In this document: positions 30,580-50,079 of the stretch, piece by piece
Position numbering within the stretch: position 1 is the stretch's first letter
Layout: the number at the start of each line of letters is the position of its first letter
Origin: Gammaproteobacteria bacterium
Lineage (GTDB): Bacteria; Pseudomonadota; Gammaproteobacteria; Eutrophobiales; Eutrophobiaceae
DNA: 54,142 nucleotides
NCBI GenBank assembly: GCA_038922795.1
Contig: JBCKWI010000005.1
Location: 1 to 54,142 of the forward strand
Reading direction: 5' to 3'
Program-made: the position numbers and the translations under genes
The notes under the pieces: generated by a model
Told to the model about the DNA's origin: nothing
Seen by the model: only the letters and a program-made list of their open reading frames with translations
Database searches by the model: none

Positions 30580-30764
30580 TTAAGGAGCCTCTGATTAAGG
30601 TGTCATTTCGAGCAAAGCGAGAAATCCTTGTCTCGACCAAAGGGACGACCCCATGGACGGGGGAGGTAGAGTTGCGCCGGGAGCAGCAACCGAGAGATCT
30701 CATTAAGATCCCTCACTTCGTTCGGGACGCCTACGGCGAATTTCTCCTTTTAGTCGAAATGACA
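30580..30764. repeat. Composite REP element with one 48-bp module (30646-30693)
   Basis: Reverse-complement homologue of 49846-50079 and 53108-53223. Confidence 0.85.
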
Positions 30765-30771
30765 GAATTTG

Positions 30772-31661
30772 TTATTTCTTTTCCTCTTCAAGCCGCTCCA
30801 GCCGTTGCATCAAAAATAGCAATTCATGTTCATCCTTGATTGCGCCACTCTCCAGCAAACCTCCTATCAATATTTTGGCGCTTTCAATTTCATGCATGTC
30901 TTCCAGCACATAAATAGGCATCTGCTTTACCCAGTGAGGAACATTCTCGACTGTCACGTGTCCGGCCAGCGCCTCTGCATAGCGCAGCGCCAGTGGTAGA
31001 TCATTTAATCTGTGCTTGGCCACATAAACAGCATGAGCAAGCGAAGGCCAGCGCCGGTTTGGATCCTCAAAAAACTTCTCATACACAAACTCAAGCATTT
31101 GCCTTTGCCTTGTTTCATCTGGCACCTGGCTATAGACACGGCTGGCGGCAAGCAACGGGTATTGTCCTCTCCTATCCAGCACCAGAATATTATCCAGCCA
31201 GCCTGTGACCTTGTTATAGTCAAGTTCCCGGAACGGGATGCTGATACCCGGTTGATTATCAAATGCCTGTAACCAGAGCATCAGCATTTTTGCAAGGGCA
31301 ACTGGATCACCCAAACTGGAAAGCTGTAATTGTTCTTTTGATAACGGTTCGGGCAATGGTCTTGCCGAAGGATCAAGCAACGGTCTCGCTGCGTGCCATG
31401 CAATCTGCGCAGATAGCGCAACAACAAGAATAATCAAAACCACGCGCGGGACATCTGCTACTGACCGTTCATTACTATTAGGGAACCTCTGAATAAGTCT
31501 AAAAATTCTTTGAATCGTCATTACTGGCACCCTCCGGGTATAAACTCCTGCCAGTATCCCCTTCCCCCTTCCAGGGGGAAGGTACGACTGCATGGATGCA
31601 GGCGGTGAAGATACTTATTCAGAGCTTCCTTAGTTATCCATGCAGGTAACAATAATTGCAT
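30772..31661 (-). CDS. Membrane-anchored hypothetical protein of the pilus/ABC locus, interrupted near codon 10 by a MITE
   Basis: Removing 31482-31629 plus one TTAG gives MQLLLPAWITNSNERSVADVP...; in-frame restart ATG at 31521. Confidence 0.75.
31482..31629. mobile_element. 148-bp MITE with IS5-like TIRs and TTAG TSD
   Basis: GGAACCTCTGAATAAGT / ACTTATTCAGAGCTTCC, flanked by TTAG on both sides. Confidence 0.82.
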
Positions 31662-31663
31662 TA

Positions 31664-32434
31664 TCAAAAATTCTTTCTGTAAAGGTCGAACAATGCCGCC
31701 GCGGAAAGCAAACTGACATATATCACGCTTTGTATAATGATAACGGGTAAATCGCCTGCATTTCCGGAACCGTATACCAGCCATTCCGTCCGGGTAAAAC
31801 CGGCAAGATCCGGCAAAACATACGCAATCAGATCGATAGCTTTATTCATAAACTGCTGTGACAAGGCTGTTGATTCAAGTATCGGGCTGCGACTTAAAAG
31901 CTGAATGGTACTGATACTTCTTGCCAATAGATAAAATGCTACTACGACAGTGAAGGCAGTTGTTATGTTTCCGAATGTGAAAAGACACAGCAGACAAAGC
32001 GCAATAATGATAAATAACTCACACATCAATGACACAACCCATAAAGCAACTTGGGTAAATTCAGAATAAAGCAGGAGAGGCAAACTCAGGAGAAGCGAAA
32101 AAACCACTGTCAGAAGAAAAAACCCGGAAAGCTTGCCAAGATAATAAACGTATCTGGATAAAGGCAGCGATATGATCATGTCCACTGTTTTATCATTGAA
32201 TTCCCTGACAACACTGGTAATTACAAACAGACTGATAACGAAGACAGTCGCCAGACGCATGACAAAACCCACCAGCCCTCCCTGCACCTGATGAGTTTCA
32301 GTTATGGCAAGTTCACCGGCAAACTGCCCTAGTGCAAATACACAGACTATACCAATCAAACCGAGGACAAACAGGCGGTTTTTAATCGCTTCAAGGAAAG
32401 TATATTTAGCAATCGTGATAACCGGGTGTTTCAT
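31664..32434 (-). CDS. ABC-2 type transporter permease
   Basis: IAKYTFLEAIKNR, LPLSR..Y.LGK, multiple TM segments, F.RKNF end. Confidence 0.88.
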   Translation of the reverse strand: MKHPVITIAKYTFLEAIKNRLFVLGLIGIVCVFALGQFAGELAITETHQVQGGLVGFVMRLATVFVISLFVITSVVREFNDKTVDMIISLPLSRYVYYLGKLSGFFLLTVVFSLLLSLPLLLYSEFTQVALWVVSLMCELFIIIALCLLCLFTFGNITTAFTVVVAFYLLARSISTIQLLSRSPILESTALSQQFMNKAIDLIAYVLPDLAGFTRTEWLVYGSGNAGDLPVIIIQSVIYVSLLSAAALFDLYRKNF

Positions 32435-32452
32435 AATGACATTGTATAAATG

Positions 32453-32851
32453 CTAAAGCCTCCGTGCATCAGGCAATACTGCCATCTTTCGATCAAGGGT
32501 GAGGGTCACAAGGCCGGAACGGCAGTAATCATCCGCAATAAGGCGATCAAGCAATCCACAACCAGTCCTGGTTTCAAGGATTTTGAGTACATTATTACCA
32601 TTAAGAGGAGCCACCAGCCCGCTACTAAAAACCTGGGTAAGTGCAGTGCGGGCATCTCCCCTGGATACACCATAATGGTGTTGAAGAACGATATATGCTT
32701 CACCAATGACCTGGTTTGAAACAAATGTTTCTGCATCTTCCTGTTCTATGAGAAGCGTTAACTTACGAACACTGTCTTCGAAACCTGCCTTGGGATCACC
32801 TGTAAGCAGGCGAACAAGGATAGAAGTATCAATCCCGAAGCGAGGGGTCAT
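32453..32851 (-). CDS. vapC: PIN-domain toxin VapC
   Basis: GIDTSILVR, conserved E, LLDRLI, TLD. Confidence 0.85.
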   Translation of the reverse strand: MTPRFGIDTSILVRLLTGDPKAGFEDSVRKLTLLIEQEDAETFVSNQVIGEAYIVLQHHYGVSRGDARTALTQVFSSGLVAPLNGNNVLKILETRTGCGLLDRLIADDYCRSGLVTLTLDRKMAVLPDARRL

Positions 32852-33071
32852 GCGGTTTTTTTCGGAAGGTATTCAGATTAAACCTGCCTTTACCTTTACG
32901 TATTTTATTGCGTAATGGGGCAAGGCGTGAGAGATCGATACGGCGGGGCCGGAGAATATAACCTTCTGTGCCTTCACGTAATTCAAGACTATCACCGGGT
33001 TGTACTCCAAGCGAATCCAGCACCCGGGCCGGGAAAGTGACCTGACGTTTAGCTGTAATTTTGATAATCAT
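32829..33071 (-). CDS. vapB: AbrB/MazE-family antitoxin
   Basis: KITAKRQVTFP..V.DSLGVQPGD. Confidence 0.85.
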   Translation of the reverse strand: MIIKITAKRQVTFPARVLDSLGVQPGDSLELREGTEGYILRPRRIDLSRLAPLRNKIRKGKGRFNLNTFRKKPHDPSLRD

Positions 33072-33306
33072 GGTAATACCTGCATTTCACCTTACTGAAA
33101 GGATAGTTTAGTAAGGCATATATGTCAAACCAGATGTACATCCATCCCTATTAACCCGCTGGTAAAGAAGCGGTTTTTAATCGCTTCAAGGAAAGTATAT
33201 TTAGCAATCGTGATTACGGGATATTTCATAGTAGAATGCGTTAAATTATGTTACGAGATCAATTATATACTATGGTGTCCATGTTATTCACATTCAGAGA
33301 GTATTC

Positions 33307-33477
33307 ATCCCTCCCCCTTTAAGGGGGACGACTGCATGGATGCAGGAGGTAGGATGAAGCAGGATGCCAGAGTCGAGGACGCGGTGGGGGTCAAGAATAT
33401 CAAACCCGCGGTTTTCGCCCCCATCCTGACCCCCGTATAAAGTACGGGGCAGGCTTCCCCCGTCAAGTGGGAAGGTT
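33307..33477. repeat. CCCTCCCCC-type palindromic repeat containing a 48-bp module (33329-33376)
   Basis: TCCCCCTTTAAGGGGGA[module]GG...; second arm CCCCATCCTGA...TTCCCCCGTCAAGTGGGAAG. Confidence 0.75.
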
Positions 33478-33537
33478 TTTGTTTCTTAATTTTTATGTTG
33501 AATTAACTATACATACTATTTCTTAAATTCCTGATCT

Positions 33538-35208
33538 ATGACCAGTGTAATGCAACCCATCATCAACCGGCGGGATTATTTTATTCTCGCCGCCATGCTG
33601 GGTTTCCTGCATGCCGCGCTCCTGATTGATTTTGGCAGTGCAATTTCCAGCGCCCTGCTGCTGATACATCTCGGGTTTTTCCTGCTCTGGCAACCTTTAC
33701 AAAAAAGTGAAGAAAAATATGCCTGGTATAATGGCATCATTTTCATAGGGCTAATGCTGGCGTTTGCCTATTGGGTCAACTGGTGGTTGATCTTTGCGTG
33801 GCTGATTTTGCTGATAGGGATAGCCGGTGGCCGGGTTGTTATCAACCGGACGGAAAGGTATGTTCTCTTTCTGGCCATGATTTTCCTCGTCTCTGAATTG
33901 TTAATTATTGCTATTCCCAGCCTGTTTACTGTCGTTTACGGTAATCCGGTTTTTAATCCTCTTAAATACGCCATCATTTTCATCCCATTGGCATTGCCAC
34001 TCTTTCCACGTCCTTATGCAAGGAAAACGGAATTGTCCGTTGATTTGTTACATGCCATCACGGCCTCGCTGCTGGTAGGCCTCCTTGCACTTGGCAGTCT
34101 GGTCATTATGTATCACAGCGGCACGGATTATTTCACTTCCCTGATTTATTCCCTCCTCGCGATCGGCACCGGCCTGCTATTGATCAGCTGGCTGTTATCA
34201 GCGCATACAGGTTTCGGGATGTTGTCCCAGCTATGGTCCAGATCGCTGTTGAATATCGGCACCCCCTTTGAACAATGGCTTGCGGAGTTATCCGCTCTTA
34301 AAGATCAACACGAATCTCCGGCAGATTTTCTGGAAGCCGCCATTGAAAAACTTGCCGCCCTGCCCTGGATATCCGGTGTTAAATGGCATATATCCGATCA
34401 ACTGAATATTCATGGAATCAAGACCAGCCATGCAATCAAACTCAGCATCAAAACATACCCTGTCACCCTTTATACCCGCGTCCCCGTTGGTGGCGCGCTA
34501 TTGTTACACTGCAAACTACTCATGAAACTGATTGAATATTTCTATATGGCCAAGGTGAATGAGCGTGAACTGGCGAACCGGGCACATCTGCAGGCCATAT
34601 TCGAGACCGGTGCCCGTATCACACACGATATTAAAAACCTTCTGCAATCCATGCATTCCATGGTCACCATACTGCAGGCGGACACGACTGAGACAGACTC
34701 AAAGTCTGTTCTTATCCTTAAAAAACAATTCCCCTATTTTATCCAGCGCCTCGAACAGGCCATGGATAAACTCCAGACGCCGCAGCAGTTCAGCAAGGAA
34801 GAGATCTATCTGATGGACTGGTGGGGGGAATTAAATGCACACTACAAGGACTACCATATTGATTTCCATGCGGAGATAGACAGCAATCCATTGATCCCGT
34901 TTGACCTGTTTAACAGTATCACGGGAAACCTGCTCGAAAATGCCATCACAAAACGCAAAGGCGAGCCTGATATCAGGATCTCCGCAAAAATAAATATCAA
35001 GGGTGACGCGATCAGCTTGATAGTTTCTGATACCGGCAAGGCCATCGATGAAAAAACTGCCGCCATGTTATTCAAGGAATCTCTGAAATCAGATAACGGC
35101 CTCGGTATAGGTCTGCTTCAGGCTGCCAAGCAGGCCGAATCCATGGGTTACACACTCAGCCTGAAATATAATTTCACCGGTAATGTGTGTTTTGAGTTAC
35201 ACAATTAG
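33538..35208 (+). CDS. Membrane sensor histidine kinase
   Basis: Many TM segments; THDIKN, NLLENA, DTG, GLGIGL. Confidence 0.9.
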   Translation: MTSVMQPIINRRDYFILAAMLGFLHAALLIDFGSAISSALLLIHLGFFLLWQPLQKSEEKYAWYNGIIFIGLMLAFAYWVNWWLIFAWLILLIGIAGGRVVINRTERYVLFLAMIFLVSELLIIAIPSLFTVVYGNPVFNPLKYAIIFIPLALPLFPRPYARKTELSVDLLHAITASLLVGLLALGSLVIMYHSGTDYFTSLIYSLLAIGTGLLLISWLLSAHTGFGMLSQLWSRSLLNIGTPFEQWLAELSALKDQHESPADFLEAAIEKLAALPWISGVKWHISDQLNIHGIKTSHAIKLSIKTYPVTLYTRVPVGGALLLHCKLLMKLIEYFYMAKVNERELANRAHLQAIFETGARITHDIKNLLQSMHSMVTILQADTTETDSKSVLILKKQFPYFIQRLEQAMDKLQTPQQFSKEEIYLMDWWGELNAHYKDYHIDFHAEIDSNPLIPFDLFNSITGNLLENAITKRKGEPDIRISAKINIKGDAISLIVSDTGKAIDEKTAAMLFKESLKSDNGLGIGLLQAAKQAESMGYTLSLKYNFTGNVCFELHN

Positions 35209-35244
35209 CATGATCATAATACCATAACCTGCATAACATACCTT

Positions 35245-35541
35245 TCAAAGATTCTTTAACTGTTCAGGTAACAGGCGTGCACTATGGCGTATTGTCAAAA
35301 TATCTATTCGATCAGGAAGGATACGGTAGATAATCCGATACCGGCCCTCGTATATTTCCCGAATATCGTCCCGTTGATATTTAGACACTTGTTTTCCACT
35401 ACGTGGATGCTCTGCTAGCACCTGCACTCTACGGGTTATTCAATCAATAAAACGTAAAGCATTAGAGGGTTGATCTTCTGCTATGTAATTATAGAGTTGT
35501 TGTAATCAATACCGGCTCTTATGCGTCCAATTGACCTTCAT
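35245..35541 (-). pseudogene. RelE/ParE toxin with two in-frame TGA codons
   Basis: MKVNWTHKSRY*LQQLYNYIAEDQPSNALRFID*ITRR...YRIIYRI...ILTIRHSAR. Confidence 0.85.
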
Positions 35542-35732
35542 TCAGGTAAACCAAACTGCTGACGCACAGTTGTATTATCTACAACCCGGCCTGCATCACT
35601 ATCTTCCAATCCTTCCTCAATATCTTGCATAACTGAAAGTTCATAAATCAGGTCTTTCCAGCTCGCTTCATCCGGTAATTGGTCTATCAACTGATGTGCC
35701 GCTTGTTTAATTGTATGGGTTGGCGTACTCAT
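35538..35732 (-). CDS. Antitoxin upstream of the RelE/ParE toxin
   Basis: LIDQLPDEASW..L.Y.L...IEEGL.D..AGRV; ATGA overlap with the toxin. Confidence 0.8.
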   Translation of the reverse strand: MSTPTHTIKQAAHQLIDQLPDEASWKDLIYELSVMQDIEEGLEDSDAGRVVDNTTVRQQFGLPE

Positions 35733-35762
35733 CTCAAACCTCATCTGGTTTTACTGTTTATA

Positions 35763-35938
35763 GAACCTATCTTAAAATTGATTTTCTGCTTTTTTGACAG
35801 AATCAATAACCGATGACACCTTCCCCCTGGCAGGGGGAAGGCCGGGATGGGGGTTGAGTTTCAGCCATGTTTTATATTTCACCCCCACCTCAATCCTCCC
35901 CCTTCAAGGGGGAGGAAGTTTAATTTTGAGATAGGTTC
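35763..35938. mobile_element. 176-bp MITE (GAACCTATCTYAAAATT TIR, TA flanks), empty form
   Basis: Homologue of 44456-44679 lacking the 48-bp insert. Confidence 0.85.
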
Positions 35939-36220
35939 TACAATATTTTACACTATCTCACTGCTCTACACAGGTCCATGTGCATATCTTTTATATTCGT
36001 CATATGGCAACTGGCCTATCTTAACAAGGGAAAAGGTTATTCTTGAATTGATGGAACCTTATAGTCAAACCCAAGTAGTCCTTTGGGTTACACACTCAGC
36101 CTGAAATATAATTTCACCGGTAATGTGTGTTTTGAGTTAAGAAAATTAAATGACTATTGAAGCGTTACCAGATGGGCGCTATCCTTCACGTATTGATTTA
36201 ATCTTTAATAACCTACAGCC

Positions 36221-36511
36221 ATGAAACCTTCAAATTCACTCAAGCAACACAGGGCAGCTATCCGGCAAATCATTAAACGCCACCATGCAGATAACGCCAG
36301 AATCTTTGGCTCAGTTCTAAAGGGTAATGATAAAGAGGGGAGTGATCTGGATATTATTGTTGATCCAACCCCCTTAACCACGCTAATGGACATAGGTGCT
36401 ATGCGCATCGAGTTACGTAACCTTCTTGGTGTTGAGGTCGATGTATTGACTCCAAATTCTCTCCCCGGCCACTTTCGTGAACAGTTGCTCCGGGACGCAC
36501 AACCTGTATGA
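36221..36511 (+). CDS. Minimal nucleotidyltransferase antitoxin (MntA-like)
   Basis: IFGS..KG.D..GSDLDI, VDVLT. Confidence 0.9.
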   Translation: MKPSNSLKQHRAAIRQIIKRHHADNARIFGSVLKGNDKEGSDLDIIVDPTPLTTLMDIGAMRIELRNLLGVEVDVLTPNSLPGHFREQLLRDAQPV

Positions 36512-36870
36512 ATTCTGAAGAGCGCGCCAGACTTAAAGATTACCTGGGCCACATACTTCTCGCAATTGACCGCATTAATCTGTATATCGATGAGATGAAC
36601 GAAATAGCATTTACTCAGGATCAGCGTACCCAAGATGCTGTAATCTGTAATTTTTAGATTATAGGTGAAGCCTCAAGAAACATAACAAAACACTATCCTG
36701 AATATGCAGCAAAGAACTCACATGTGCCGTGGGACATTGCATATGAAATGAGGAATGTTCTGTCACATGGTTATTTCGGAGTTGATATCGGTATTGTCTG
36801 GAAAACGATTGAAAATGATCTGCCTATACTTAAAGCTCAAATAAACGGATTATTACAAACAACCAACTGA
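36508..36870 (+). pseudogene. HEPN/DUF86 toxin (HepT-like) with an internal TAG at codon 50
   Basis: DAVICNF*IIGEA (usually DAVIRNFEIIGEA); RNVLSHGYF motif; TAG at 36655-36657. Confidence 0.88.
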
Positions 36871-36877
36871 AAACAGC

Positions 36878-37120
36878 ATGGCTGCATTGAATTATCTCTC
36901 TATAAATGACGAATTTACCCCGTTTGTATTGAGCGAATACATCAAGAACCCGGTTCGGGTTATGCGCATCGAAGCTGGCCTGAACCAGGCACAACTTGCA
37001 CGCCGCTTAGGTGTCACACAAGGTTATATCAGCCGGATCGAAGGCCGCAATTATCCTGTAAGTGAAAAATTGCTTAAACGGGTAAACGATGTTCTGAAAG
37101 TTGCTCGTAAAAAGAAATAA
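36878..37120 (+). CDS. Xre-family HTH protein (orphan antitoxin-like)
   Basis: R.EAGLNQAQLARRLGVTQGYISRIE. Confidence 0.8.
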   Translation: MAALNYLSINDEFTPFVLSEYIKNPVRVMRIEAGLNQAQLARRLGVTQGYISRIEGRNYPVSEKLLKRVNDVLKVARKKK

Positions 37121-37278: not shown

Positions 37279-38007
37279 TCAGGGAAGGATTCCTGCATTC
37301 AGCATCTTGGTCCTGAGAATATGCGGTGAGATCCAAATCATAAGATCATCAATATCAAAGCTGTAATCCCTATACACAAAATATTCATCATCATTAAGAT
37401 TTTCTGCTTCATCTGTGGATGGCGCTTCAGCCCAGTCCTTTCCGTATGATACAACAATTGCGGGAATTTCTGTAGCAAGATTTGATCCGCCAGCACTATT
37501 CAGAACAACAATGTCACCATCCGAACATAATGCAAATGAAACATTCAGTGTAGTGTCAGAACATGAAGGAGGATTATTGGCACCATCTGTATTATCACCA
37601 AATGTTGTAGTAACACGGTAAGTGAATCTCTGCCCCCATGCATCATGTTCCTTAACCCCTAATATTACCCAGGGAAGATTCCCCATTGCTGTGGCACAAC
37701 TAGCGCCACCCAGTATATCTTCAACGCCATCATTTGCCGTCATGGTCGCACAATCACCCGCATTGTCCCTGCAATCCGGGCATGGCAGGCGATACTTATT
37801 GAGCACATTATTTTGATTGAACATGAAACCGAATAACACCTCTTTGATCTCATCCAGTTGGGCCTGTGTTTGCTCCCGTTGCCTCTGCTCTATCTGAGTT
37901 GTCAAGGGTGGCAATATAGCGCCCAAAAGTAGTGCGAGAATAAATAACACTATCGCTAACTCGATCAGTGTAAAACCACTGTGATATTGAATTTTCATTT
38001 CGGTCAT
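37279..38007 (-). CDS. Minor prepilin-like protein
   Basis: HSG/FTLIELAIVLFILALL; LPCPD, DAWG. Confidence 0.88.
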   Translation of the reverse strand: MTEMKIQYHSGFTLIELAIVLFILALLLGAILPPLTTQIEQRQREQTQAQLDEIKEVLFGFMFNQNNVLNKYRLPCPDCRDNAGDCATMTANDGVEDILGGASCATAMGNLPWVILGVKEHDAWGQRFTYRVTTTFGDNTDGANNPPSCSDTTLNVSFALCSDGDIVVLNSAGGSNLATEIPAIVVSYGKDWAEAPSTDEAENLNDDEYFVYRDYSFDIDDLMIWISPHILRTKMLNAGILP

Positions 38008-38012
38008 TGAAA

Positions 38013-39893
38013 TTATGGTGTGGCAAGAACTTTTATCTGATCATTAAATATTGAGCTTGCTTTACCTTTTTCAAATATTTCATTATCAGGGGGAGTAATA
38101 ATTGAATTCATTCCCTCGAAATAACTCAACAAATCACCCGGCGCTGCTGTTCTGTCCTGCTCAATACCTTCAGCTGGATTATTAATGGCCGCCCCGGCAA
38201 TAATCACCAAGCCGCGATTATTATTCTCCGGGTTACCTGCGCCATCCAATACAAGGCAATCAGTTCCACTCGTACACACTGTCGCACTTCCGGGAGGACT
38301 CTCTGATTCCGGATAAGCTACATAAATCAATTTATGCCAGTCATTTTTTACAAACCAATCGGGTATTTCGCCATCATCAATATTAATATCGTATTGAATT
38401 GAGCCGACACTAATATTGCCATCCAGAATCTCTCCGATGCTCAAGACAAGTGTACTGGCACGCTGTCCATCATAAAGAACAGGATTGAACCATGCAGCAA
38501 ATGCTGCCAGTCCTGAGTCATAAGTGTCTGAAAGCTGAACGCTAACATTCTCTACATTGTTGTTTGATATATCCAGAGTCCTCGCTCTTGATGAAGTTGA
38601 TTCAGGATTCGCAATAATTGCATCATCAATATCTGTATATTCAAATGTGATGCTGTATGTTCTGCTGACGTTATATGTAATATCAATATCCTCTCCAAAT
38701 AAATTATGGGTTCTGGTGTAAGCTGTGGTTATCGTTTTCGTTCCATTGCATTTCATATAATTTTTTGGTTCAACATCTACCGTATTTGTCCATTCACACT
38801 GTCCAACAGCTTTGGCAATTTGAATCGGGCCATTAAGAACGCCAAAAATAGAATCCGTGCAATCATCTGATCTCATACAATTTTCGTCCGGATCAGGAGT
38901 ATCGGGGTTGCCTGAAGTGGTCAAAGTACCGTTATTTATATCCCATGCAACAGACTGTTCTGTATCAAATGGATTCCTGTTATTTGAACCATCAGGAAGG
39001 TCTTCCAGAAAATGATAAGGCAAATGTCCCTGCCATGTATTTATCACTGTCTTGAATGCAGATGTGGATGGATCAGAAAACGGACTCAGCCAGGGATAAG
39101 CATCATAATCAGTTTGATATTTTCTCAATGCCTGTGCCACTTCTCCCAATACGCGTTTTTCAACCGCCTGCATTAATTCGTCTTTGGTCAGCAGAATATA
39201 ATTATCCGTATTACTTGTTTGAATAACCTTGTTACCACTACTGAAAACAGCTTCGATATAATTTGTATGGTCATTAGGCCCAGCATCCCTGTTCTGATTA
39301 TTTTGCGGGACTCCTGGAGCAAAGATAATGGCTGCTATATCGGCCATGCCATTTACTTCAAGATTGCCGGTAGAATCACTGACAGTTTCGCTATTTTGAC
39401 GCGCCAGTTTTTTGGGATTATTCCTGAAATTATCTGCTACCACATACCACAAACGCTCACCATGACTGTCCTTAATGTCCTCAGCTTCTAGCGTTTTATA
39501 TGGAAACCTGCCAATAGAAGTTCCTCCACTCAATGAACAGCTGCCGCCAGCAGAACCATTATTGTTTATGTCTGCGCATGGTAAATAACCCGGTCCATCA
39601 ATCGGATCAGTTCCTGATTTGGCATCAATTTCCGGGAACATGACTGCATAACCAATTAACGCCTGCTTGGCCTGATTAAGAGCCATTCTTGTCCGTTCTT
39701 CACCACCCACCCTGATTAAATTTGCATTGAGCTTATTAACGAGCAGGTAAGATGTGCCGACTATCAGAACCAGCATAAAAGCCAGCACTACTGCGCCTGA
39801 TTGCTGTTTTTGCGAATCATGATTAAACACAAGATTTCTCGCTTCACTCGAAATGACAGAGGAAAGAAAGATTCCTCGGTCTCTGTTCGACAA
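38013..39893 (-). CDS. Large PilX-like pilin/adhesin; start uncertain because of repeat insertions
   Basis: KQQSG/AVVLAFMLVL; AL.QAKQALIGYA, PGYLPCAD. Confidence 0.8.
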   Translation of the reverse strand: MSNRDRGIFLSSVISSEARNLVFNHDSQKQQSGAVVLAFMLVLIVGTSYLLVNKLNANLIRVGGEERTRMALNQAKQALIGYAVMFPEIDAKSGTDPIDGPGYLPCADINNNGSAGGSCSLSGGTSIGRFPYKTLEAEDIKDSHGERLWYVVADNFRNNPKKLARQNSETVSDSTGNLEVNGMADIAAIIFAPGVPQNNQNRDAGPNDHTNYIEAVFSSGNKVIQTSNTDNYILLTKDELMQAVEKRVLGEVAQALRKYQTDYDAYPWLSPFSDPSTSAFKTVINTWQGHLPYHFLEDLPDGSNNRNPFDTEQSVAWDINNGTLTTSGNPDTPDPDENCMRSDDCTDSIFGVLNGPIQIAKAVGQCEWTNTVDVEPKNYMKCNGTKTITTAYTRTHNLFGEDIDITYNVSRTYSITFEYTDIDDAIIANPESTSSRARTLDISNNNVENVSVQLSDTYDSGLAAFAAWFNPVLYDGQRASTLVLSIGEILDGNISVGSIQYDINIDDGEIPDWFVKNDWHKLIYVAYPESESPPGSATVCTSGTDCLVLDGAGNPENNNRGLVIIAGAAINNPAEGIEQDRTAAPGDLLSYFEGMNSIITPPDNEIFEKGKASSIFNDQIKVLATP

Positions 39894-40019
39894 TATGTTC
39901 CCGACATTGTCTCGGTCTCTGTTCCAGACTCGACTCTACCGATTTCATCCCTGTAATCGTACCACCTACATCCTTGTAGGCGTCCAGACGCGACTCTACC
40001 TCCGGCATCCATGCAGTCG
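39876..40019. mobile_element. Triple-nested 48-bp modules (3 x 48 = 144 bp) inside a REP
   Basis: Outer 39876-39886 + 39983-40019; middle 39887-39911 + 39960-39982; inner 39912-39959. Confidence 0.85.
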
Positions 40020-40061
40020 TCACATTTGCTCGAAATGACAGCTTAAATAATTCAGGCATGT

Positions 40062-40820
40062 TCAATTGTCTTGATATCCCGGCGAAATTATTTTATCTGC
40101 CTCAGGATCATAGGTCTGGCCGGTTTTTAATTTAATTTTTGTTTCGTTGATCGGGATTAGAATCTCAACATCTTCCGGTTTGATATTGTGCGCATCGATC
40201 TGGATATATTGATTAGCAAAATTGCCCTCATAGGTATTGGCGCTGTTAACCCACGCAGTGCTTTTGTTTCCTTTTCGGTATACCAGTCCATTGACGGTGA
40301 TGCCGCCAATGACGGGTTTTTCTTCTGCAACTTCTGGTTCCGGTTCCATGAAAATGATTTCTGGCGCTTTTTCTTCAACCGGTTTCTGATGGCGCAGTTT
40401 TTCCAGCGTATTACGTTGCTGTGGCGTGGTGAACAGGCGGCCGAGATCGTCATCGGCGAAGGCATTTGGTGCTAATGTAAATAACAATATCGCCATAGCA
40501 GCAAGCACGGACATTGAGTAGAAGATATTATTTACTGGATACTGGTCGCTACGGACATCGTGTCCTCTCGCGACATTTCCTACATCCTGTAGGTCGCCTT
40601 CGCCAGTATGACAGCTGAAAGAATTTTTAGATTTATTCAGAGGTTCCTTAACATTACACCCCCATCCTGCCTCGGCTTTGGCTTCCTGCGTCGCTCTACC
40701 GCCTGCATCCATGCAGGCGTTCTCCCTTAAAAGGGGAAGGTGCTTTATGCTCGAAATGACAGGGCAGAGAAGATTTATCGTTCTTGCTCGAAATGACAGC
40801 TTGTGTATATATCGTTTCAT
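40062..40820 (-). CDS. Exported pilus-associated protein (LGRLFTT type) with repeat-derived N-terminal extension
   Basis: LGRLFTTPQQR..LE; ATG overlaps the upstream stop (ATGA); alternative start at 40514. Confidence 0.75.
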   Translation of the reverse strand: MKRYIHKLSFRARTINLLCPVISSIKHLPLLRENACMDAGGRATQEAKAEAGWGCNVKEPLNKSKNSFSCHTGEGDLQDVGNVARGHDVRSDQYPVNNIFYSMSVLAAMAILLFTLAPNAFADDDLGRLFTTPQQRNTLEKLRHQKPVEEKAPEIIFMEPEPEVAEEKPVIGGITVNGLVYRKGNKSTAWVNSANTYEGNFANQYIQIDAHNIKPEDVEILIPINETKIKLKTGQTYDPEADKIISPGYQDN

Positions 40821-43043: not shown

Positions 43044-44220
43044 AAATCGGTCCTAATACGGAAAACATAACCCAGCCGATAATCGTGCCGAGCACAACAG
43101 TCATTGCAGGTTCAATCATGGTCTGTACTTTCTCAATAGATTCTTTAATGTCGCGGGTATAGAAATAACTGATATTCAGCAATGCGCCTTCCAATGCGCC
43201 TGTGTTCTCCCCTACCCTGATCATTCGCAACACCAGAGGCGGGAATAATCTGGCCTTCTCAAAACTCCTGCTCAGGGTTTCGCCTTCCGCAATCAATTGC
43301 CCGACCTGGCGCATGGCCTCTTCAATGACCTTGTTGCCGACAATCTGCTCGCCGGTGCGGATACATTCAATAATGGTTATTCCCGAGGCATACATCATGG
43401 CAAAAAAACTGGTCAGACGGGTCAGGATAATCTTTTTCAGAATCGGCCCGATGATCGGGGTCTTCAATTTCAGCGCATCGACATTATAACGGAATGAAGG
43501 GCTCACCCTGATACCTACCATAATTGCTATATACAATAAAACCGGCAACGATAAAATCAGGTACCAGTAATTTACGAACACATTGGAGACTACTATCAGT
43601 GCCTTGGTATGCGCTGGCAGTTCCTGCCCCATGGTTTTTACGAATGTGAGTAATTCAGGAACCAGATAAATCATAAGAAAAAACACAACCGCGATGACTA
43701 CACTGCCTACCACTACCGGATAGATAAGCAACTTCTTGGTTTGCGCTGCTGTTTCATCCTGCCACTTCAGGTTTTCACCAATGTTAAAAAATACCTGTGT
43801 AATTTCACCTGACTGCTCGCCTGCCCGTACCAGTGCACTGAATATTCTATCAAACACAGCCGGATAATCGCGCATGGCGTCTGACAGTGTTTTACCACCT
43901 TCAATGGATTCAATCATCGAGGCAATCACTTCACGCAGCCGTGGGTTTTCAGTACTGTCCCGGAGGTCCTGCAGGCTTTCCAGGATGGGCACGCCGGCGC
44001 GACTGGTTTGTTCAAGGTGAAAACAGAAGGTGATCAAATCCCGGCGCGTTACACCGGCGCCGGTAATTCTCTGGGTACTGGAGCCCAGTTCTTTATAATT
44101 AATCAGGTCCAGACCCATCTTGGTCAGGCGCGCCTCAAGGTCAGCGATATTGACGGCATCAACCTTGCCGTTATGTATCCTGCCGTTATCGTCGATTGCC
44201 TTGTATTTGTATGCTTCCAT
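43015..44220 (-). CDS. PilC/GspF/MshG platform protein
   Basis: AGEQSG, YP, GENTG.L, IEP, PIY. Confidence 0.93.
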   Translation of the reverse strand: MEAYKYKAIDDNGRIHNGKVDAVNIADLEARLTKMGLDLINYKELGSSTQRITGAGVTRRDLITFCFHLEQTSRAGVPILESLQDLRDSTENPRLREVIASMIESIEGGKTLSDAMRDYPAVFDRIFSALVRAGEQSGEITQVFFNIGENLKWQDETAAQTKKLLIYPVVVGSVVIAVVFFLMIYLVPELLTFVKTMGQELPAHTKALIVVSNVFVNYWYLILSLPVLLYIAIMVGIRVSPSFRYNVDALKLKTPIIGPILKKIILTRLTSFFAMMYASGITIIECIRTGEQIVGNKVIEEAMRQVGQLIAEGETLSRSFEKARLFPPLVLRMIRVGENTGALEGALLNISYFYTRDIKESIEKVQTMIEPAMTVVLGTIIGWVMFSVLGPIYDLISKVKI

Positions 44221-44269
44221 CGGGACCCTTGTTTACCGTTTGTTCACGGATACTACTTCAACCTGCTGC

Positions 44270-44435
44270 GCCTTCCCCCTGGCAGGGGGAAGGTTGGGAT
44301 GGGGGTTGAGTTTCAGCCATTCCTGAGATTTCACCCCCACCTCGACAACTGTTCCCGGCGTTGTTCTCGGTCTCCGCTCCAGACTCGACTCTACCTCCTC
44401 CTTCCTTGGAGTCGTCGCTTCGCTCGGAATGACAA
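44270..44435. repeat. Chimeric repeat: MITE core + half 48-bp module (44342-44366) + full module (44367-44414) + REP arm
   Basis: Left part repeats 44510-44579; ends TCGCTTCGCTCGGAATGACA. Confidence 0.8.
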
Positions 44436-44455
44436 ATGAATATTCATGTTAATTA

Positions 44456-44679
44456 GAACCTATCTCAAAATTAGTTTTCCGCTCTTTTGACGGAAGCAAT
44501 AATCCACTGCGCCTTCCCCCTGGCAGGGGGAAGGTTGGGATGGGGGTTGAATTTCAGCCATTCCTGAGATTTCACCCCCTCGACAACTGCTCCCGGCGTT
44601 GTTCTAACTCCTGCATCCATGCAGTCGACCTCAATCCTCCCCCGTCAAGGGGGAGGAAGTTTAATTTTGAGACAGGTTC
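44456..44679. mobile_element. 224-bp MITE = 176-bp form plus a 48-bp module (44580-44627)
   Basis: Same TIRs as 35763-35938; length differs by exactly 48. Confidence 0.88.
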
Positions 44680-44690
44680 TAATAAATTCT

Positions 44691-46406
44691 TCACTTCTGT
44701 TTTATCCTGCTGGTCAAATCAATGACACGTGACATTTCTTCCAGTGATGTTGAACCATCCAGCACCCGTGCCGAGCCTGAATCCGCCAGGGTCTTGAATC
44801 CTTTCGACAAGGCGGCGCGCATGAGTTCACGCTGGGTACCGCGCCGGGCAATGATGTCGTCCAGGTCAGTATCGAGATGCAGGATTTCCAGGATTGCCAA
44901 TCTGCCCCTGTAGCCTTGCCCTTCACATTGCTGGCAACCTTTGGCACGATAGGTAGATTGATGTTTATCCGTTACCTTCAAGTTTAGCAGCGTCCGCTCC
45001 AGTTCACTCATTTCGTAAGACTCTTTACAAACGGGACAAAGCTTTCGCACCAGCCGCTGTGCGATTATCCCGATGATGTTACCGGCCAGAATGTCCGGTT
45101 TTATGCCGATATCCATGAGGCGTGGTATCGCCGCCAGAGCCGAATTGGTATGCAGGGTTGAAAACACCTGATGTCCGGTCATCGCGGCGCGCAAGGCCAT
45201 GCTGGCCGTATCTTCATCACGAATTTCACCGACCAGAATAATATCCGGATCCTGGCGCATCATGGAACGGATACCGCTGGCAAAATCCAGCCGGGATGTT
45301 TCACTGGCCGAGGTCTGGCGGATCATGCTGGTGGGGTATTCCACCGGGTCTTCCAGGGTCATGATATTGACTGATTCGCTGTTCAGATAATGCAGAATGG
45401 AATAGAGCGTTGTGGTCTTGCCGCTGCCGGTGGGGCCGGTGATCAGGATAATGCCCTCCGGACGGGAAACCATGATCTTCAATATATTGAGCGCATCATC
45501 CTTGAGACCGAGTTTTTCCAGGGCGACAATACCACTCTGGCGATCCAGCACACGCAGGACAATATTTTCGCCATGTACCGTGGGTAATGTTGAAACACGG
45601 AAATCAACCGGGCGCCCGGAGAGAGAAAGCGAGATACGTCCATCCTGCGGGGAACGGGTTTCGGCAATGTCCATACCGGCCATGACTTTTAAACGCACGG
45701 CAATCGCTGACCAGTAATTTTTATGGATGCTGCGGATCTGGCGCAAGACTCCGTCAATTCGATAGCGGAACCTGAGGAAACCTTCTTCCGGCTCAAAGTG
45801 GATGTCCGAGGCACGGCGCTTGACCGCATCCGCCAGCAATGCGTTCACCAGACGCACTACCGGCTGGCTGTATTCATCGCTTTCCGCATCCAGACTTTGA
45901 TAATCGATCTCGCCGGTCTCGATCTCTTTCAGGATGCCATCAACGGATAATTCAAAACCATAAAACTGATCAATACATTTTTCTATTTCCGCTTCACCAG
46001 CAAGCACAGGTATTAATTCTATCTCCCTGCCAACCTGGACACTGACCTGATCCAGCACGACCACGTTAAATGTATCCGTCATGGCGATGGTCAGCTTCTT
46101 GTTTGCACTGTCATAAGTCAGTGGCAAGACATGCAGGCGGCGGGCCAGTGCTTTGGGCACCAATGTGACTGCATCACCGTCGGCAACGGCATTTTCCAGA
46201 TTGACACTGACCTGACCGATAACGCCACCAATGACATCGCGAATGATAGACTCTGTTGCAAATCCCAAACGCACCAGTATCTTGCCGAGTTTTTCCTTGC
46301 TTTTTTTCTGTTCCATCAGCGCAATTTCAATCTGATCGGGCGTGGTGACACCTTGCTGAACAAGGATCTCTCCCAGGCGTTGGACCTTTTTATTCTGGAG
46401 ACTCAC
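44691..46406 (-). CDS. PilB/GspE/MshE extension ATPase with MshEN-like N-terminus
   Basis: RLGEILVQQG, ASDIHFEP, GPTGSGKTT, RQDPD, CxxC pairs. Confidence 0.95.
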   Translation of the reverse strand: MSLQNKKVQRLGEILVQQGVTTPDQIEIALMEQKKSKEKLGKILVRLGFATESIIRDVIGGVIGQVSVNLENAVADGDAVTLVPKALARRLHVLPLTYDSANKKLTIAMTDTFNVVVLDQVSVQVGREIELIPVLAGEAEIEKCIDQFYGFELSVDGILKEIETGEIDYQSLDAESDEYSQPVVRLVNALLADAVKRRASDIHFEPEEGFLRFRYRIDGVLRQIRSIHKNYWSAIAVRLKVMAGMDIAETRSPQDGRISLSLSGRPVDFRVSTLPTVHGENIVLRVLDRQSGIVALEKLGLKDDALNILKIMVSRPEGIILITGPTGSGKTTTLYSILHYLNSESVNIMTLEDPVEYPTSMIRQTSASETSRLDFASGIRSMMRQDPDIILVGEIRDEDTASMALRAAMTGHQVFSTLHTNSALAAIPRLMDIGIKPDILAGNIIGIIAQRLVRKLCPVCKESYEMSELERTLLNLKVTDKHQSTYRAKGCQQCEGQGYRGRLAILEILHLDTDLDDIIARRGTQRELMRAALSKGFKTLADSGSARVLDGSTSLEEMSRVIDLTSRIKQK

Positions 46407-46421
46407 TTTTTATACTTTAAA

Positions 46422-48116
46422 TTATTGATTTGAAACTTGTGTCAGGTCGTTGACACGGGCCAGCACATTGGCAGTGTTGAAACTCACCTGTGTCGAATCA
46501 GTCAGCTCAAGTGCCTTGTTATAATATTCTATTGCCGCCCGCGACTGCCCGATATGATCAAGACTTACGGCAAGATTATAGGCGTAATCCGGATTATCCG
46601 GTTGCAGGCGGTGGGCCTCAAAAAATGCCTGTTGCGCTTCAGGCCAACGTGACTGGGCTGCATAATTATTACCCAGCGCAAAATGCAGGAAAGCAGTGTC
46701 AGGCTGTTCCCGGAGCATGAGTTTTATCGTGCTCTCGTTTTTCAGCGGATCAGTATTATCCTGAAGACTGATCATCCCGGTGATTGCCACAACATCTCTG
46801 GGATAAAGTTTCAGGACTTTAAGATAATACTCATAGGCGCCCCGCACATTTCCCTTACGCCAGGCAATGGCGGCATTACCCAACAGGGCATCACGGTTCT
46901 CCGGCATGGTCTTCAACACTTCCTGATATGCCGCTTCTGCTTGTATAAAATTACCTGCGTTATATTGAGCATAGGCGGCATTGATCAGTTGATCTTTTTT
47001 GTCCGCTGATTTTGTGCGGCTGATGGCAATGGCCTGTTCGTCGACCTGTATCTTTTCAGGCAATATATTATTTTCTTCCGGCATACTCTGCGTTGCCGTT
47101 GCCGTTGCCTCAATAACAGGTGGTTTCCAGTCCGCAACTTCAGGTCCGGATATGGCCATTGGTCCAGGTTCACCTGCTGCAACCTCAGGCTGCTCAGATC
47201 CCGCAACCGGTGCGGCCGGGGATTCCATCGTTGCTATGGTTGCTGCCTCCGGCAAGACGGCGCTTGCGGATACTGGTGCTTCTTCCGCCGGCAACGGGAC
47301 AACAAATGCCGGTAGCGCGTCAACTTCCACCCCTTGCGCGACTAATGGAGAAGAAACTTCCGGCGTTAAAGGTGTGATCTTGAGATAATAAAACGTGCCA
47401 GCGGCAGCCATAATGACGGCAAACAATCCAAGGAAAACCACCCACTCCATAACTTTCCGTTGACCGGAAACACCGCCAACCGCACTGAACACAGTCTGGG
47501 CTGCAACCGGTGTAGGGGCTGTCTTGCCAAGGCTGCCGATATCTCTGGCCAGTTCGGCGGCACTGATGACTGATTTGAAGGAGCGGCTGCCGCTTAACGT
47601 ATCCGTAAACTTGTCTTTGAGCAGGTCATCGCCTGTATCATCAAACGGAGGAATTGAATCCTCTTCTATACTAATATCCGTCAGGGCAAATGATTTATCG
47701 TCGCCCGGCGTGGGTTGCTTTTCATCATTTAAATCATGCTCATCAAATGATCCGGAAAGACCGGCATGTTCAATGGTGACATCTTCCAGGAACAATGATT
47801 CAGGTTCAGTTTTTTTAGCGCCCGGATGGGTTGTTGATAACTCTGGACCAGGTTTATGTTCGACTGTGTTCTCATCAAGCGCCGGGAGGGACAGCCCTGA
47901 AGAGCTTTTTTTTTCTGTAACGATTGATGATCCTGCCTGTCTGGTTTCTTCTTTTGACGGCCCGTCCTTTTGCCACGGTGTTTCCGCCGTATCCTGCTGA
48001 TCATCCGACTGCAGTTTAATCTGCTCGCCGGTCCTTTCCTGGGCTTCCTTGAGTCGTTTGGCTGCCTCCTTTTTTTCCTGTTCCGCCTTTTTCAAGGCAT
48101 CCATTAACAGGCTCAC
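46422..48116 (-). CDS. TPR protein (MshN-like), single TM
   Basis: MSLLMDALKKAE start; C-terminal TPRs (FALGN, YNLAVSLD). Confidence 0.8.
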   Translation of the reverse strand: MSLLMDALKKAEQEKKEAAKRLKEAQERTGEQIKLQSDDQQDTAETPWQKDGPSKEETRQAGSSIVTEKKSSSGLSLPALDENTVEHKPGPELSTTHPGAKKTEPESLFLEDVTIEHAGLSGSFDEHDLNDEKQPTPGDDKSFALTDISIEEDSIPPFDDTGDDLLKDKFTDTLSGSRSFKSVISAAELARDIGSLGKTAPTPVAAQTVFSAVGGVSGQRKVMEWVVFLGLFAVIMAAAGTFYYLKITPLTPEVSSPLVAQGVEVDALPAFVVPLPAEEAPVSASAVLPEAATIATMESPAAPVAGSEQPEVAAGEPGPMAISGPEVADWKPPVIEATATATQSMPEENNILPEKIQVDEQAIAISRTKSADKKDQLINAAYAQYNAGNFIQAEAAYQEVLKTMPENRDALLGNAAIAWRKGNVRGAYEYYLKVLKLYPRDVVAITGMISLQDNTDPLKNESTIKLMLREQPDTAFLHFALGNNYAAQSRWPEAQQAFFEAHRLQPDNPDYAYNLAVSLDHIGQSRAAIEYYNKALELTDSTQVSFNTANVLARVNDLTQVSNQ

Positions 48117-49780
48117 GGACTTGCCACTCCCCGTGCACCAGGCACTGTTGACTGTTGATCCAGAAATGTATTGTAAAAATTCAGATCGCTATCAAGGCTC
48201 GGGTTACGTATTACTAATGGCCTGATAAAGATGACTGTTTCAGTTTTACTATATTCAATATTGCGCGTTTTGAACAGATTTCCTAACAAACCTAGTTTAG
48301 AAGTACCGGGAAGACCTGCATCCCTTACTGAAGACCGGTCCTCCATCAATCCGCCAAGTATCGCAACCTGCCCGCTGTTGAGCCTGATGATTGATTCCAT
48401 CTCCTGTGAAACGGTTTCCGGGATAAAATTATCAAGAATCGTTGCTGTTCCCCCACCAGCAGCAGGTACCGGTATCGCCTTTTTCACGCCTGTATCACGT
48501 GAAATGGTCGGGCGCACCAGCAGAATGATCTCATCATTCTCCGCAATGTGGGGAGTGATCGTCATGACGATACCAATTGGCAGTTGGTGTATCGTCGTGT
48601 CAAACGACTGGGTAGTTCCCGCCACACTTGTCGCGGTACTACCTTCGACAGTAAAGAATACCTTGTTTTCAATACGCTTAAGTATGGCTGTCTGGTTATT
48701 CAGCGCCATCAATTGCGGGCTGGACAATACCTTGACATTACCAAACTCTTCCAGCAACTGGAGTGTCGCTTCTGTATCAGAATCTTCGTAATTCACAACC
48801 AGACCCTTAGCCCCTGATATTGCCGCTGCTGCGAGTGTCCCAAAGCCTGTTCCCAAAGTGCTGGAAGTAATAGCAAATGCGCCAAGTTCTAGAGATTTCC
48901 AGTCTATGCCGGCCTGGTATTCATCACTCAAACCAACTTCAACAATCGTGATCTGGATAAGTACCTGGCGCCGGACATTATTCATGACCTTGTCGATGAA
49001 TGCCTGAATCTGCTCATGTTGTTTTGTGGTTGCATTGACCGAGATCGTCCCGGTTTCCGGGCTGGTGATCACTGCATCCGAGATCGGGACTTCACTACCC
49101 GATGAGGCAGTAACTTTTTCGCCTATGATGGCCTGAATATTATTGGTGATCGCCACCCAGAAACGGTTTAAAGACGTACTGGTCAGATCCGTCGTTGAAT
49201 TATTCCCGGAGAATGCGCCGCCGCCCTGTCCGCCGCCCTCACTGCCACCAACACTGGTGGTAGCCAGGGATGTCGCCACGGTATTGGTATTTACCGTATC
49301 GCGGGCAATATTCAGATAATCAATTTTATAGGTTCTGAAGAAGGGTAAATCCGGCTCAACAAACAGATTATCGCCCTGGTATTCGTAGCGCATATCAACC
49401 TGGCGGCCGATGCGGTCCAGGATCTGGGGCAGGGTTTGATCAACCGCGTTGATAGTGACATTGCCATCGATGCGCGGATCGATATCGACATTGATCTTGG
49501 CGTCGCGGGCCAGCGCGAACAAGAGTTCCTTGGCCGGCACTTCATTCACCACCACGGTATATTTTTCCTGTTCCACGGGGGGTTGTGGCGCGGGCAGGAT
49601 GGGGGTTTTCTGGACCAGTTCCGGGATTTGTCCGGCTGGTTTTGTGTCGCTCTTTATATGGCCAGCCGACGGTTCGAAGGGTTTGGGTTCAATTTCGGCA
49701 CAACCAAACACCAGAAACGCCACAAGGCCGAACAGCACCGGTTTTAACTTGTTCAACTCCATATCCCCCATATAGCCCAT
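48113..49780 (-). CDS. Lipidated secretin (MshL-like)
   Basis: VFGC lipobox; RQVLI..TIVEV, VLSSP, LNNQTA, LGGLM. Confidence 0.9.
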   Translation of the reverse strand: MGYMGDMELNKLKPVLFGLVAFLVFGCAEIEPKPFEPSAGHIKSDTKPAGQIPELVQKTPILPAPQPPVEQEKYTVVVNEVPAKELLFALARDAKINVDIDPRIDGNVTINAVDQTLPQILDRIGRQVDMRYEYQGDNLFVEPDLPFFRTYKIDYLNIARDTVNTNTVATSLATTSVGGSEGGGQGGGAFSGNNSTTDLTSTSLNRFWVAITNNIQAIIGEKVTASSGSEVPISDAVITSPETGTISVNATTKQHEQIQAFIDKVMNNVRRQVLIQITIVEVGLSDEYQAGIDWKSLELGAFAITSSTLGTGFGTLAAAAISGAKGLVVNYEDSDTEATLQLLEEFGNVKVLSSPQLMALNNQTAILKRIENKVFFTVEGSTATSVAGTTQSFDTTIHQLPIGIVMTITPHIAENDEIILLVRPTISRDTGVKKAIPVPAAGGGTATILDNFIPETVSQEMESIIRLNSGQVAILGGLMEDRSSVRDAGLPGTSKLGLLGNLFKTRNIEYSKTETVIFIRPLVIRNPSLDSDLNFYNTFLDQQSTVPGARGVASP

Positions 49781-49820
49781 GAACTGGACTCTTGATTATA
49801 AACTACCAAACAATAATCCT

Positions 49821-50079
49821 ATAGGACCTCTGATTAAGTTGTTATTGTCATTTCGACCGTAGGGACGCCCTTGCATGAATGCAGGCGGTAGAACCACGCC
49901 GGGAACAGTGATCGAGAAATCCGTCGTAGGCATCCCGAACGCAAGTGAGGGATCTTAATGAGATCTCTCGGTTGCTGCTCCCGGCGCAACTCTACCTCCC
50001 CCGTCCATGGGGTCGTCCCTCCGGTCGAGACAAGGATTTCTCGCTTTGCTCGGAATGACACCTTATCAGAGATTCCCTA
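49821..50079. repeat. Composite REP element in IS5-like TIRs with two modules (49866-49915, 49968-50015)
   Basis: Homologous to 30580-30764 and 53081-53223. Confidence 0.85.

Follow-up and report, generated by a model that had tools for sequence, protein, structure and literature searches.

A 48-nt, two-hairpin, REP-like module that inserts into its own copies and into other palindromic repeats of a groundwater gammaproteobacterium

Repetitive extragenic palindromic (REP) sequences of the GTAG-1 and GTAG-2 kinds carry, in the description of their layout given by Di Nocera et al. (2013, PMC3733652), a dinucleotide left unpaired behind the tag and, at the far side, a conserved 3-nt motif. In the account of Ton-Hoang et al. 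(2012, PMC3333891), E. coli TnpA_REP binds single-stranded REP and transfers strands, its in vitro cuts fall at TGCC|TGAT, at (G/T)NCC|TAC inside CTAC and at C|T in linkers, and excision of a single-stranded circle followed by re-integration is proposed; Corneloup et al. (2021, PMC8266576), in their remarks on this matter, state that the mechanism of REP dissemination is still to be elucidated and that a tetranucleotide 5' of the hairpin may guide the choice of cut site. Very small repeats that have been proposed to be mobile, the small dispersed repeats (SDRs), are reported only in cyanobacteria according to papers that cite their description, which also have SDR5 of the Nostocaceae inserting into the short repeat HIP1 (PMC5861425, PMC2884548, PMC3116915). 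Here we describe a 48-nt module that occurs repeatedly in a 54,142-nt stretch of DNA (the window) from an uncultured groundwater gammaproteobacterium. An original prediction, made from the letters of the window, held it to be a fixed-length, non-autonomous element that inserts precisely into palindromic repeats; the observation is confirmed below, and its interpretation is supported and extended.

The source genome (G000) is a 1.92-Mb metagenome-assembled genome in 127 contigs, of which the window is contig C5, and it is only 72.6% complete, so that absences from it are weak evidence. An nhmmer search seeded with eight window copies gave 180 matches in G000, and its local alignment broke off in one subfamily with shifted indels, for which reason a custom glocal profile search by dynamic programming was used; this gave 124 matches of at least 25 bits in the genome and none of at least 20 bits in the reversed genome, and a pattern search found 62 forward matches against none for a backwards control. 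The census, made with the custom profile at tiered thresholds and with repeated excision of the copies found, counts 172 modules in G000, 121 of them contiguous and 51 reconstituted only once an inner module is excised. The 48-column unit was derived from an alignment of 93 unique genomic copies, and 65 distinct copies from G000, nine relatives and IMG/VR contigs align without gaps. Among the 143 modules that score at least 45 bits, 118 are exactly 48 nt long, 14 are 47 nt and 11 are 49 nt, so the fixed length claimed from the window copies holds genome-wide. None of the 111 top-level elements lies 100 or more codons deep in an open frame, many module copies sit at contig ends, and throughout the genome the element is unable to encode an enzyme of its own.

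On its top strand the module reads TCG, hairpin 1, CTCTACC, hairpin 2, TCG. Hairpin 1 has 7 bp, one bulged T and a loop of TCCNG (in finer layout, a stem of about five pairs, the bulged T, two further pairs round the TCCNG loop, the return arm and then (C)TCTACC), and hairpin 2 has 5–8 bp and a TCCA or TCCC loop; the unit closes with (T/G)CG. Standard pairs fill 81.7% of the cells of this two-hairpin structure versus 67.2% with shuffled partners; the covariation score is 0.462 versus 0.204 for shuffled partners (0 of 500 shuffles reach 0.462) and 0.05–0.15 for slid partners, 11 of the 15 pairs have changes on both sides, and both hairpins covary. Folded singly as DNA, copies form these two hairpins whichever strand is taken (z-scores of −1.4 to −3.0), the first hairpin is weak in the TCGGCTTTGGC subfamily, and the counts of G-T and A-C mismatches do not indicate which strand folds. 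An RNA gene as the sole explanation was considered and rejected.

The bottom strand of columns 1–28 reads GTAG-AG-hairpin-CGA, which is the layout of a GTAG-type REP (a 20–50 nt palindrome after a conserved GTAG, with the dinucleotide and the 3-nt motif in place), and this accounts for one half of the module only. Columns 25, 27 and 29 of the tag are invariant, and columns 24, 26 and 28 are conserved in at least 90% of copies. The module shares with GTAG REPs its high intergenic copy number (172 copies in 1.92 Mb) and covarying stems, and it differs from them in being a REP joined to a second, unrelated hairpin at a fixed total of 48 nt. It likewise differs from REPINs and bacterial interspersed mosaic elements (BIMEs), which are inverted pairs of REPs: its two hairpins are unrelated, and modules do not stand in inverted pairs, since an opposite-strand neighbour lies within 300 bp of only 20 of the 111 top-level elements. 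Because the hairpin-1 half is a GTAG/CTAC-tagged REP, the element is not wholly outside the named kinds. The earlier remark that it was not recognised as a named family must be narrowed to that extent; it stands as regards Rfam, where a scan of the whole window matched tRNA only and left the module unmatched at the gathering score. We class the module with the small REP-like, RAYT-type elements (after REP-associated tyrosine transposases, RAYTs), and the SDRs are a precedent as very small nested repeats.

The commonest host of a module is another module copy. The genome-wide parse found 51 split host modules with 61 insertion points in which the inserts are other modules; the interruptions are 47–49 nt long in 46 cases, 95–99 nt in 14 and 145 nt in one, the deepest nest has three enclosing hosts (four modules one within another), and the sizes of the top-level elements are quantised at about 48, 96, 144, 192 and 241 bp. 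Insert and host lie on the same strand in all 77 nested pairs. Excision of a real module healed a host in 35 of 124 cases, versus 6 of 620 for random 48-nt excisions, and whenever the first parse yielded a new module following an excision round, that module spanned an excised point (35 of 35, then 11 of 11). A control with shifted excisions gave 27 healed hosts of at least 40 bits at shift 0 and 12–26 at shifts 1 to 4, and it does not discriminate because the dynamic programming tolerates small shifts. Healed hosts of at least 45 bits are 48 nt long in 30 of 40 cases and never longer than 49 nt, and after de-nesting only about 3 left and 8 right orphan halves above the null level remain.

The sites of insertion also follow a rule. 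In 112 distinct flank pairs of high-confidence modules the base at −1 is C in 99 and the base at +1 is T in 105; the junctions comprise 93 C^T, 12 T^T and 4 C^A, and the frequency of the CT dinucleotide in the genome is 0.05. Pyrimidines prevail at −2 and −3, either C or A stands at +2, and C prevails at +3 and +4, which gives the target consensus YYC^T(C/A)CC. When similar contexts are merged by single-linkage clustering (at most 8 mismatches of 24), 33 contexts are left, 24 of them C^T. Inside host modules the insertions fall at columns 25^26, CTC^TACC in the tag (28 cases, and 5 more shifted by indels), at columns 11/12, GY^TCC in the hairpin-1 loop (17 cases), at columns 14/15, YCC^TGCG, in one subfamily (8 cases), and at columns 32/35, ACC^TAC (3 cases), with T on the 3' side in 61 of 61 within-host contexts. 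Since modules carry two or three target sites of their own, they land inside one another and build up the nests of 96, 144, 192 and 241 bp.

The end of the left flank and the start of the right flank are no more alike than re-paired flanks, so there is no target site duplication (TSD), and the prediction of TSD-free junctions that are mostly C|T carries over from the window to the whole genome. Module and right flank both mostly start with T, and thus the cut can in most copies be placed one base rightward; the ends were fixed as TCG...TCG by the copy at 44580–44627, which has C^A flanks and known empty sites. The unit integrates whole, in a single orientation and without target duplication. 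A search for a guide/target pair by mutual information between flank and module gave high values in many columns and no specific pair, and none can be named because subfamily and context are confounded.

The module copies and hosts of the window are as follows.
30646–30693, minus strand: 48-nt module in the composite palindromic REP 30601–30764, a 48-column gap against the empty copy 53108–53223.
31585–31608, minus strand: hairpin-2 half of a module, orphaned; a partner half was not found.
33329–33376, minus strand: 48-nt module with flanks ..gcgtcc^ / ^tccccctt.
35763–35938, plus strand: host MITE (miniature inverted-repeat transposable element), empty copy.
39876–40019, plus strand: three-level nest of 144 bp, whose outer module (39876–39886 + 39983–40019) is split at TGT^TCC and, once healed, is 48 nt long and scores 57.1 bits.
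39887–39982, plus strand: middle module of the nest, with halves 39887–39911 and 39960–39982 split at GTC^TACC; 48 nt and 50.7 bits once healed.
39912–39959, plus strand: innermost, intact 48-nt module of the nest.
40672–40719, plus strand: 48-nt module of the TCGGCTTTGGCTTCC^TGCG subfamily, with a weak hairpin 1.
44342–44366, plus strand: orphaned hairpin-1 half; the host module's hairpin-2 half is missing.
44367–44414, plus strand: 48-nt module inserted directly after that orphan half, at TTC^.
44580–44627, plus strand: 48-nt module within the MITE 44456–44679, junction CCCCC^ / ^ACCTC, absent from the paralogous MITE and from an orthologue in a related contig (L015).
49866–49915, minus strand: 50-nt variant module in the composite REP 49846–50060, its hairpin 2 longer by 2 bases in the 3' arm; a 50-column alignment gap.
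49968–50015, plus strand: 48-nt module identical in sequence to 30646–30693, in the same composite REP 49846–50060.
53108–53223, plus strand: host composite REP, empty copy.

The lengths first assigned to the six 48-bp copies outside the nest and to the 50-bp copy were correct, and alignment likewise upheld the pairing of the empty MITE 35763–35938 with the filled one, and of composite REPs holding no module (53108–53223), one (30601–30764) or two (49846–50060). The three copies predicted between 39876 and 40019 do exist, three modules in 144 bp, and are nested and not tandem, and the two partial copies noticed at 31585 and 44342 are, more exactly, orphan halves. That the modules parasitise other repeats also holds beyond the window: paralogous, uninterrupted flanks exist elsewhere in G000 for 57 of 108 top-level elements, and besides their own copies (the 61 nested insertion points) modules also land in unrelated palindromic repeats.

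A series of composite REPs with 0, 1 and 2 units of equal length, and element sizes that are multiples of 48, are also what modular tandem repeats would give, in which the number of units changes by slippage or unequal exchange, as in BIME arrays or with boxB of the pneumococcal BOX (boxA-boxB(n)-boxC), a 45-nt unit of fixed length and variable number in a composite intergenic repeat. We regard this explanation as very improbable, for the halves of a host flank an intact unit of different sequence, nested and not head-to-tail, the two modules of 49846–50060 lie on opposite strands and at separate sites, and modules occur in many unrelated hosts, whereas boxB units are tandem. A tandem array was accordingly set aside as contradicted by the nesting geometry; module nests can be taken for tandem repeats. 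The sole truly tandem arrangement seen is on IMG/VR contig L176, where 2053–2190 holds three head-to-tail modules, the middle one without 6 nt of its hairpin-1 loop.

Comparison with relatives shows the same steps from the other side. In contig L015 the two pilus genes likewise enclose this MITE, which there is without exactly 44580–44627. A genome of the same genus, G001, is about 90% identical to G000 over syntenic DNA; the nest at G000 C3:33259–33450 has four modules, its G001 orthologue has only the outer and the middle one, and what G001 is without is exactly C3:33309–33356 (at CTC^TACC) and C3:33387–33434 (at ACC^TAC). The two nests were compared by module parse and by pairwise alignment after removal of the inserts, and MAFFT misaligned them because the modules resemble one another; once both inserts are deleted, 118 of 127 columns agree and no long gap remains. 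Three 48-bp insertions, one in L015 and two in G001, are thus missing at orthologous sites of relatives, and other G000 module clusters, for example C3:23634–24018, are entirely absent from G001. The orthologous absences may instead be precise losses in the relatives, which would still be module-exact events. Insertion events can be read from the sequence itself: their ends and their target rule are exact, polarity is strict, and nests grow stepwise between sister genomes. We are highly confident that the module is mobile under these rules of length, target and polarity.

Not every filled copy need be a separate insertion, however. Nests may move or be copied as blocks, some filled copies have probably spread by gene conversion between repeated hosts, or may have done so by transposition of whole composites, and these points count against the explanation that we prefer (below). 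Carried further, most of the apparent insertions would be gene conversion or homologous recombination of repeated hosts, with block-copied nests and few, ancient primary insertions. The hosts are indeed repeated (the 57 of 108 elements with paralogous empty sites, above), the composite TCGGTCTC..GACTC[TCGACCGC..]TACCGATT.. recurs at several loci, the filled MITE of 44580–44627 is found again with identical flanks on contig C27, and in the family relative G019 composites recur with divergence. Nonetheless, we consider this extreme improbable, because conversion cannot create 33 to 63 distinct contexts with one target consensus and one polarity, because one orthologous nest has gained two different modules since G001 split off, and because recombination would leave many unpaired halves, whereas almost none are left.

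If single modules move, what moves them? The window itself has no Y1 or HUH gene, in agreement with the prediction of an enzyme acting in trans from outside it; the HUH nature of that enzyme, to which the same prediction pointed, is still inferential. We envisage that the moving strand is single-stranded and that it would be cut and joined by an HUH Y1 enzyme whose gene lies elsewhere and whose kind is that of RAYT/TnpA_REP or IS200-IS605; cleavage would fall 5' of T, at the donor ends as well as in the target, before strand exchange. As an intermediate, a 48-nt single-stranded circle or a linear piece with two hairpins is not implausible. A 48-bp double-stranded circle, in contrast, would seem implausible given the stiffness of DNA, and the IS110 or serine-recombinase route, which needs such a circle, was rejected on that ground. 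The nesting sites YCC^TGCG and CTC^TACC (in CTAC) and the general C^T rule resemble the in vitro cleavage sites of TnpA_REP, and would be what TnpA_REP chemistry leaves behind. We rate the chances that an HUH Y1 enzyme is the moving agent as even, and as a whole the description of the 48-nt unit as a non-autonomous mobile element, two hairpins joined by a CTAC tag and mobilised by such an enzyme, is the best explanation that we have and one that we favour by a little.

G000 has four Y1_Tnp matches, on contigs C13, C21, C98 and C7, and none of the four is flanked by modules, so no RAYT flanked by its own REP, as in a REPtron, was found for the module at the Y1 loci of G000 or its relatives. The C98 gene (986–2064; this contig is also locus L003) is a RAYT above the NCBIfam cut-off (NF047646, 149.5 bits), and is surrounded by arrays of a different GTAG REP, GTAGGAGCGCGCC..GCGCGCGA, in the same frame as the module half. 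These arrays include an exact 84-bp tandem duplication, and the locus is a classical REPtron. The C13 match is a Y1-like open reading frame of 245 aa with repeats of its own that resemble terminal inverted repeats (TIRs), an inverted doubled AAAGGGGCCAGG... at 37750–37830 and 38560–38640, and in this it resembles the TIR-associated Y1 genes (TIRYT) mentioned in PMC6006769. Across the relatives, modules lie within about 1.5 kb of only 3 of 44 Y1 loci and flank none, and the suggested check for module ends around an HUH gene was thus negative at the Y1 loci examined.

Together with the C98 and C13 repeats, several further observations count against a Y1 enzyme. Y1-like genes track the modules weakly across the family (36 of 54 module-bearing versus 38 of 72 module-free genomes); in favour of such an enzyme, all 12 family genomes with at least 16 pattern matches do have a Y1-like match, related genomes not being independent, and against it G014 has 9 pattern matches and no Y1 match. 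The sole Y1-like open reading frame of G019 reads HIQ where HUH is expected, the second histidine being missing. The right end of the module is cut after G (..CG^T) and not after C, the strand with the junctions is the CTAC one, not the GTAG strand to which E. coli TnpA_REP binds, and a REP could be supplied in cis by a close opposite-strand neighbour for only the 20 of 111 elements noted above. Coupling to the lagging-strand template, as in IS608, would predict an orientation bias. Orientation relative to local GC skew, a proxy on short contigs, is 52 versus 50 in G000, with no bias by this measure, and the pattern orientation in G019 (dnaA at 1.735 Mb) does not flip, being + at 1.613 Mb and + at 2.048 Mb, where the matches are too few.

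These same facts speak for the alternative that the module is mobile as described and that its mover is a different one, such as a nuclease or a recombinase of an unrecognised kind, or a route templated by RNA: modules and Y1 genes show no physical linkage and co-occur only weakly, the stretches of G019 examined hold 28 modules, 10 of them split hosts, beside a sole Y1-like frame without the second histidine, no replication-strand bias is apparent, and the cut after G departs from the C|T rule of TnpA_REP. We judge it unlikely all the same. The target and nesting sites closely match the published TnpA_REP cleavage sites, the polarity (77 of 77) and the conserved hairpins are what hairpin-guided single-strand enzymes require, enzymes that act on double-stranded circles appear implausible at 48 bp, and the G019 copies have diverged from one another and may therefore be old.

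If the HUH reading is taken one step further, the modules may be a natural record of REP dissemination, in which a 48-nt single-stranded element with its own recognition hairpin and cut sites is moved in trans by a RAYT-like Y1 enzyme, possibly from one of the REP-less RAYT subclasses; we offer this tentatively, and would sooner bet against it than for it. Were it true, the nests would be the first in vivo footprints of C|T and C|TAC cleavage and strand transfer, which so far are an in vitro matter, and the module would be the smallest defined transposable unit with a known target rule. The spread of REPs is still described as unresolved, and the module may show how very small bacterial repeats spread; the coincidence of its target rule with the in vitro specificity of TnpA_REP gives biochemistry a concrete substrate and a prediction.

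Among other known systems, the IS200/IS605 insertion sequences and their miniature derivatives, the palindrome-associated transposable elements (PATEs), share several features with it: like them, the module has a hairpin near each end and inserts strand-specifically 3' of a short specific sequence without a TSD. The layout is shared as well, with the left cleavage site in the flank and the right one in the element, and a single-stranded intermediate is plausible for the module too. It differs in that its hairpins abut its ends and leave almost no room for a guide or linker, in that the target is constrained on both sides of the cut, and in its 48 nt, far below the sizes of PATEs. No full-length insertion sequence with module ends was found in G000; unpaired halves are few and none brackets an open reading frame, and the Y1 loci are without module ends. 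A classical MITE was rejected as the ends of the module, TCG...TCG, are direct rather than inverted and a TSD is lacking.

SDRs are reportedly 21–27 nt long and are said to nest in one another and in MITEs; to our knowledge they have neither a known enzyme nor a GTAG/CTAC tag. From the descriptions of the SDRs of Nostocaceae, the module appears to be set apart by both its sequence and its fold. For GTAG REPs and their RAYTs the likeness extends to a RAYT encoded in G000 and to nesting sites that mirror the E. coli cleavage sites, and stops at the right-end cut and at the missing module-flanked RAYT (above). Self-nesting of REP-like modules, including nesting at the tag, is not described in the collection of papers that was searched.

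The module is not confined to G000. Within the family, 54 of 126 genomes and 18 of 34 genera contain the hairpin-1 half pattern, against four matches in total for the backwards control; the pattern is also found in 21 sampled genomes of other gammaproteobacterial families, with up to 37 matches per genome, and on 12 IMG/VR contigs, 7 of which carry the full module. All 9 loci sampled in the family have a module of exactly 48 nt, most of the modules parsed at loci from other families and IMG/VR have that length too, and nests are present at loci of the family relatives G010, G014, G019 and G020 and of G375 and G382 from other families. In G019 (99% complete, 16 pattern matches) the examined stretches hold 28 modules, 20 of them 48 nt long, with the 10 split hosts mentioned above. 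Eleven of the 16 pattern matches in this genome lie within 400–472 kb of one contig.

Nests of near-identical 48-nt units break short-read assemblies. Among the sequencing runs, none contains more than 0.14 of the sampled words; contigs from X8 and X4 skip 48 nt at 30643–30692 and 39911–39960. The repeats concerned are about 90% alike, and the skips, whose origin may be paralogous copies or else the samples that gave G001 and L015, carry no weight as evidence here.

Several smaller features were also noticed. Two identical, degenerate hairpin-1-like halves (22.7 bits, near the null level) lie 411 bp apart on the minus strand at 27957–27981 and 28368–28392, and their identical flanks suggest a local tandem duplication. 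The short palindrome CCTTCCCCCTGGCAGGGGGAAGG, a separate repeat, is found 9 times in 25 kb and often adjoins modules; its copies include those at window positions 31560–31583, 35819–35842, 44271–44294 and 44512–44535, and 56-nt direct repeats are found at 35144, 36084 and 37149. A second small insert, GCACTGCTCC...GTATACGT, is about 51 nt long, has two hairpins and interrupts modules within the loop of hairpin 2, at CTGC^TTCC; its 8 copies in G000 (C34:6653, C45:8991, C10:42790, C12, C26, C2:61058, C1 and C41) all occupy this one host position, and they may represent either a further family of nested elements or a single composite that was amplified. Between 41433 and 49780 the modules of the window lie among genes of a type IV pilus or type II secretion system (T2SS)-like cluster (secretin, tetratricopeptide repeat protein, T2SSE ATPase and T2SSF), and the best named match of the pilus ATPase that flanks modules is from Gammaproteobacteria bacterium RIFCSPLOWO2_12_47_11, with 94% amino-acid identity.

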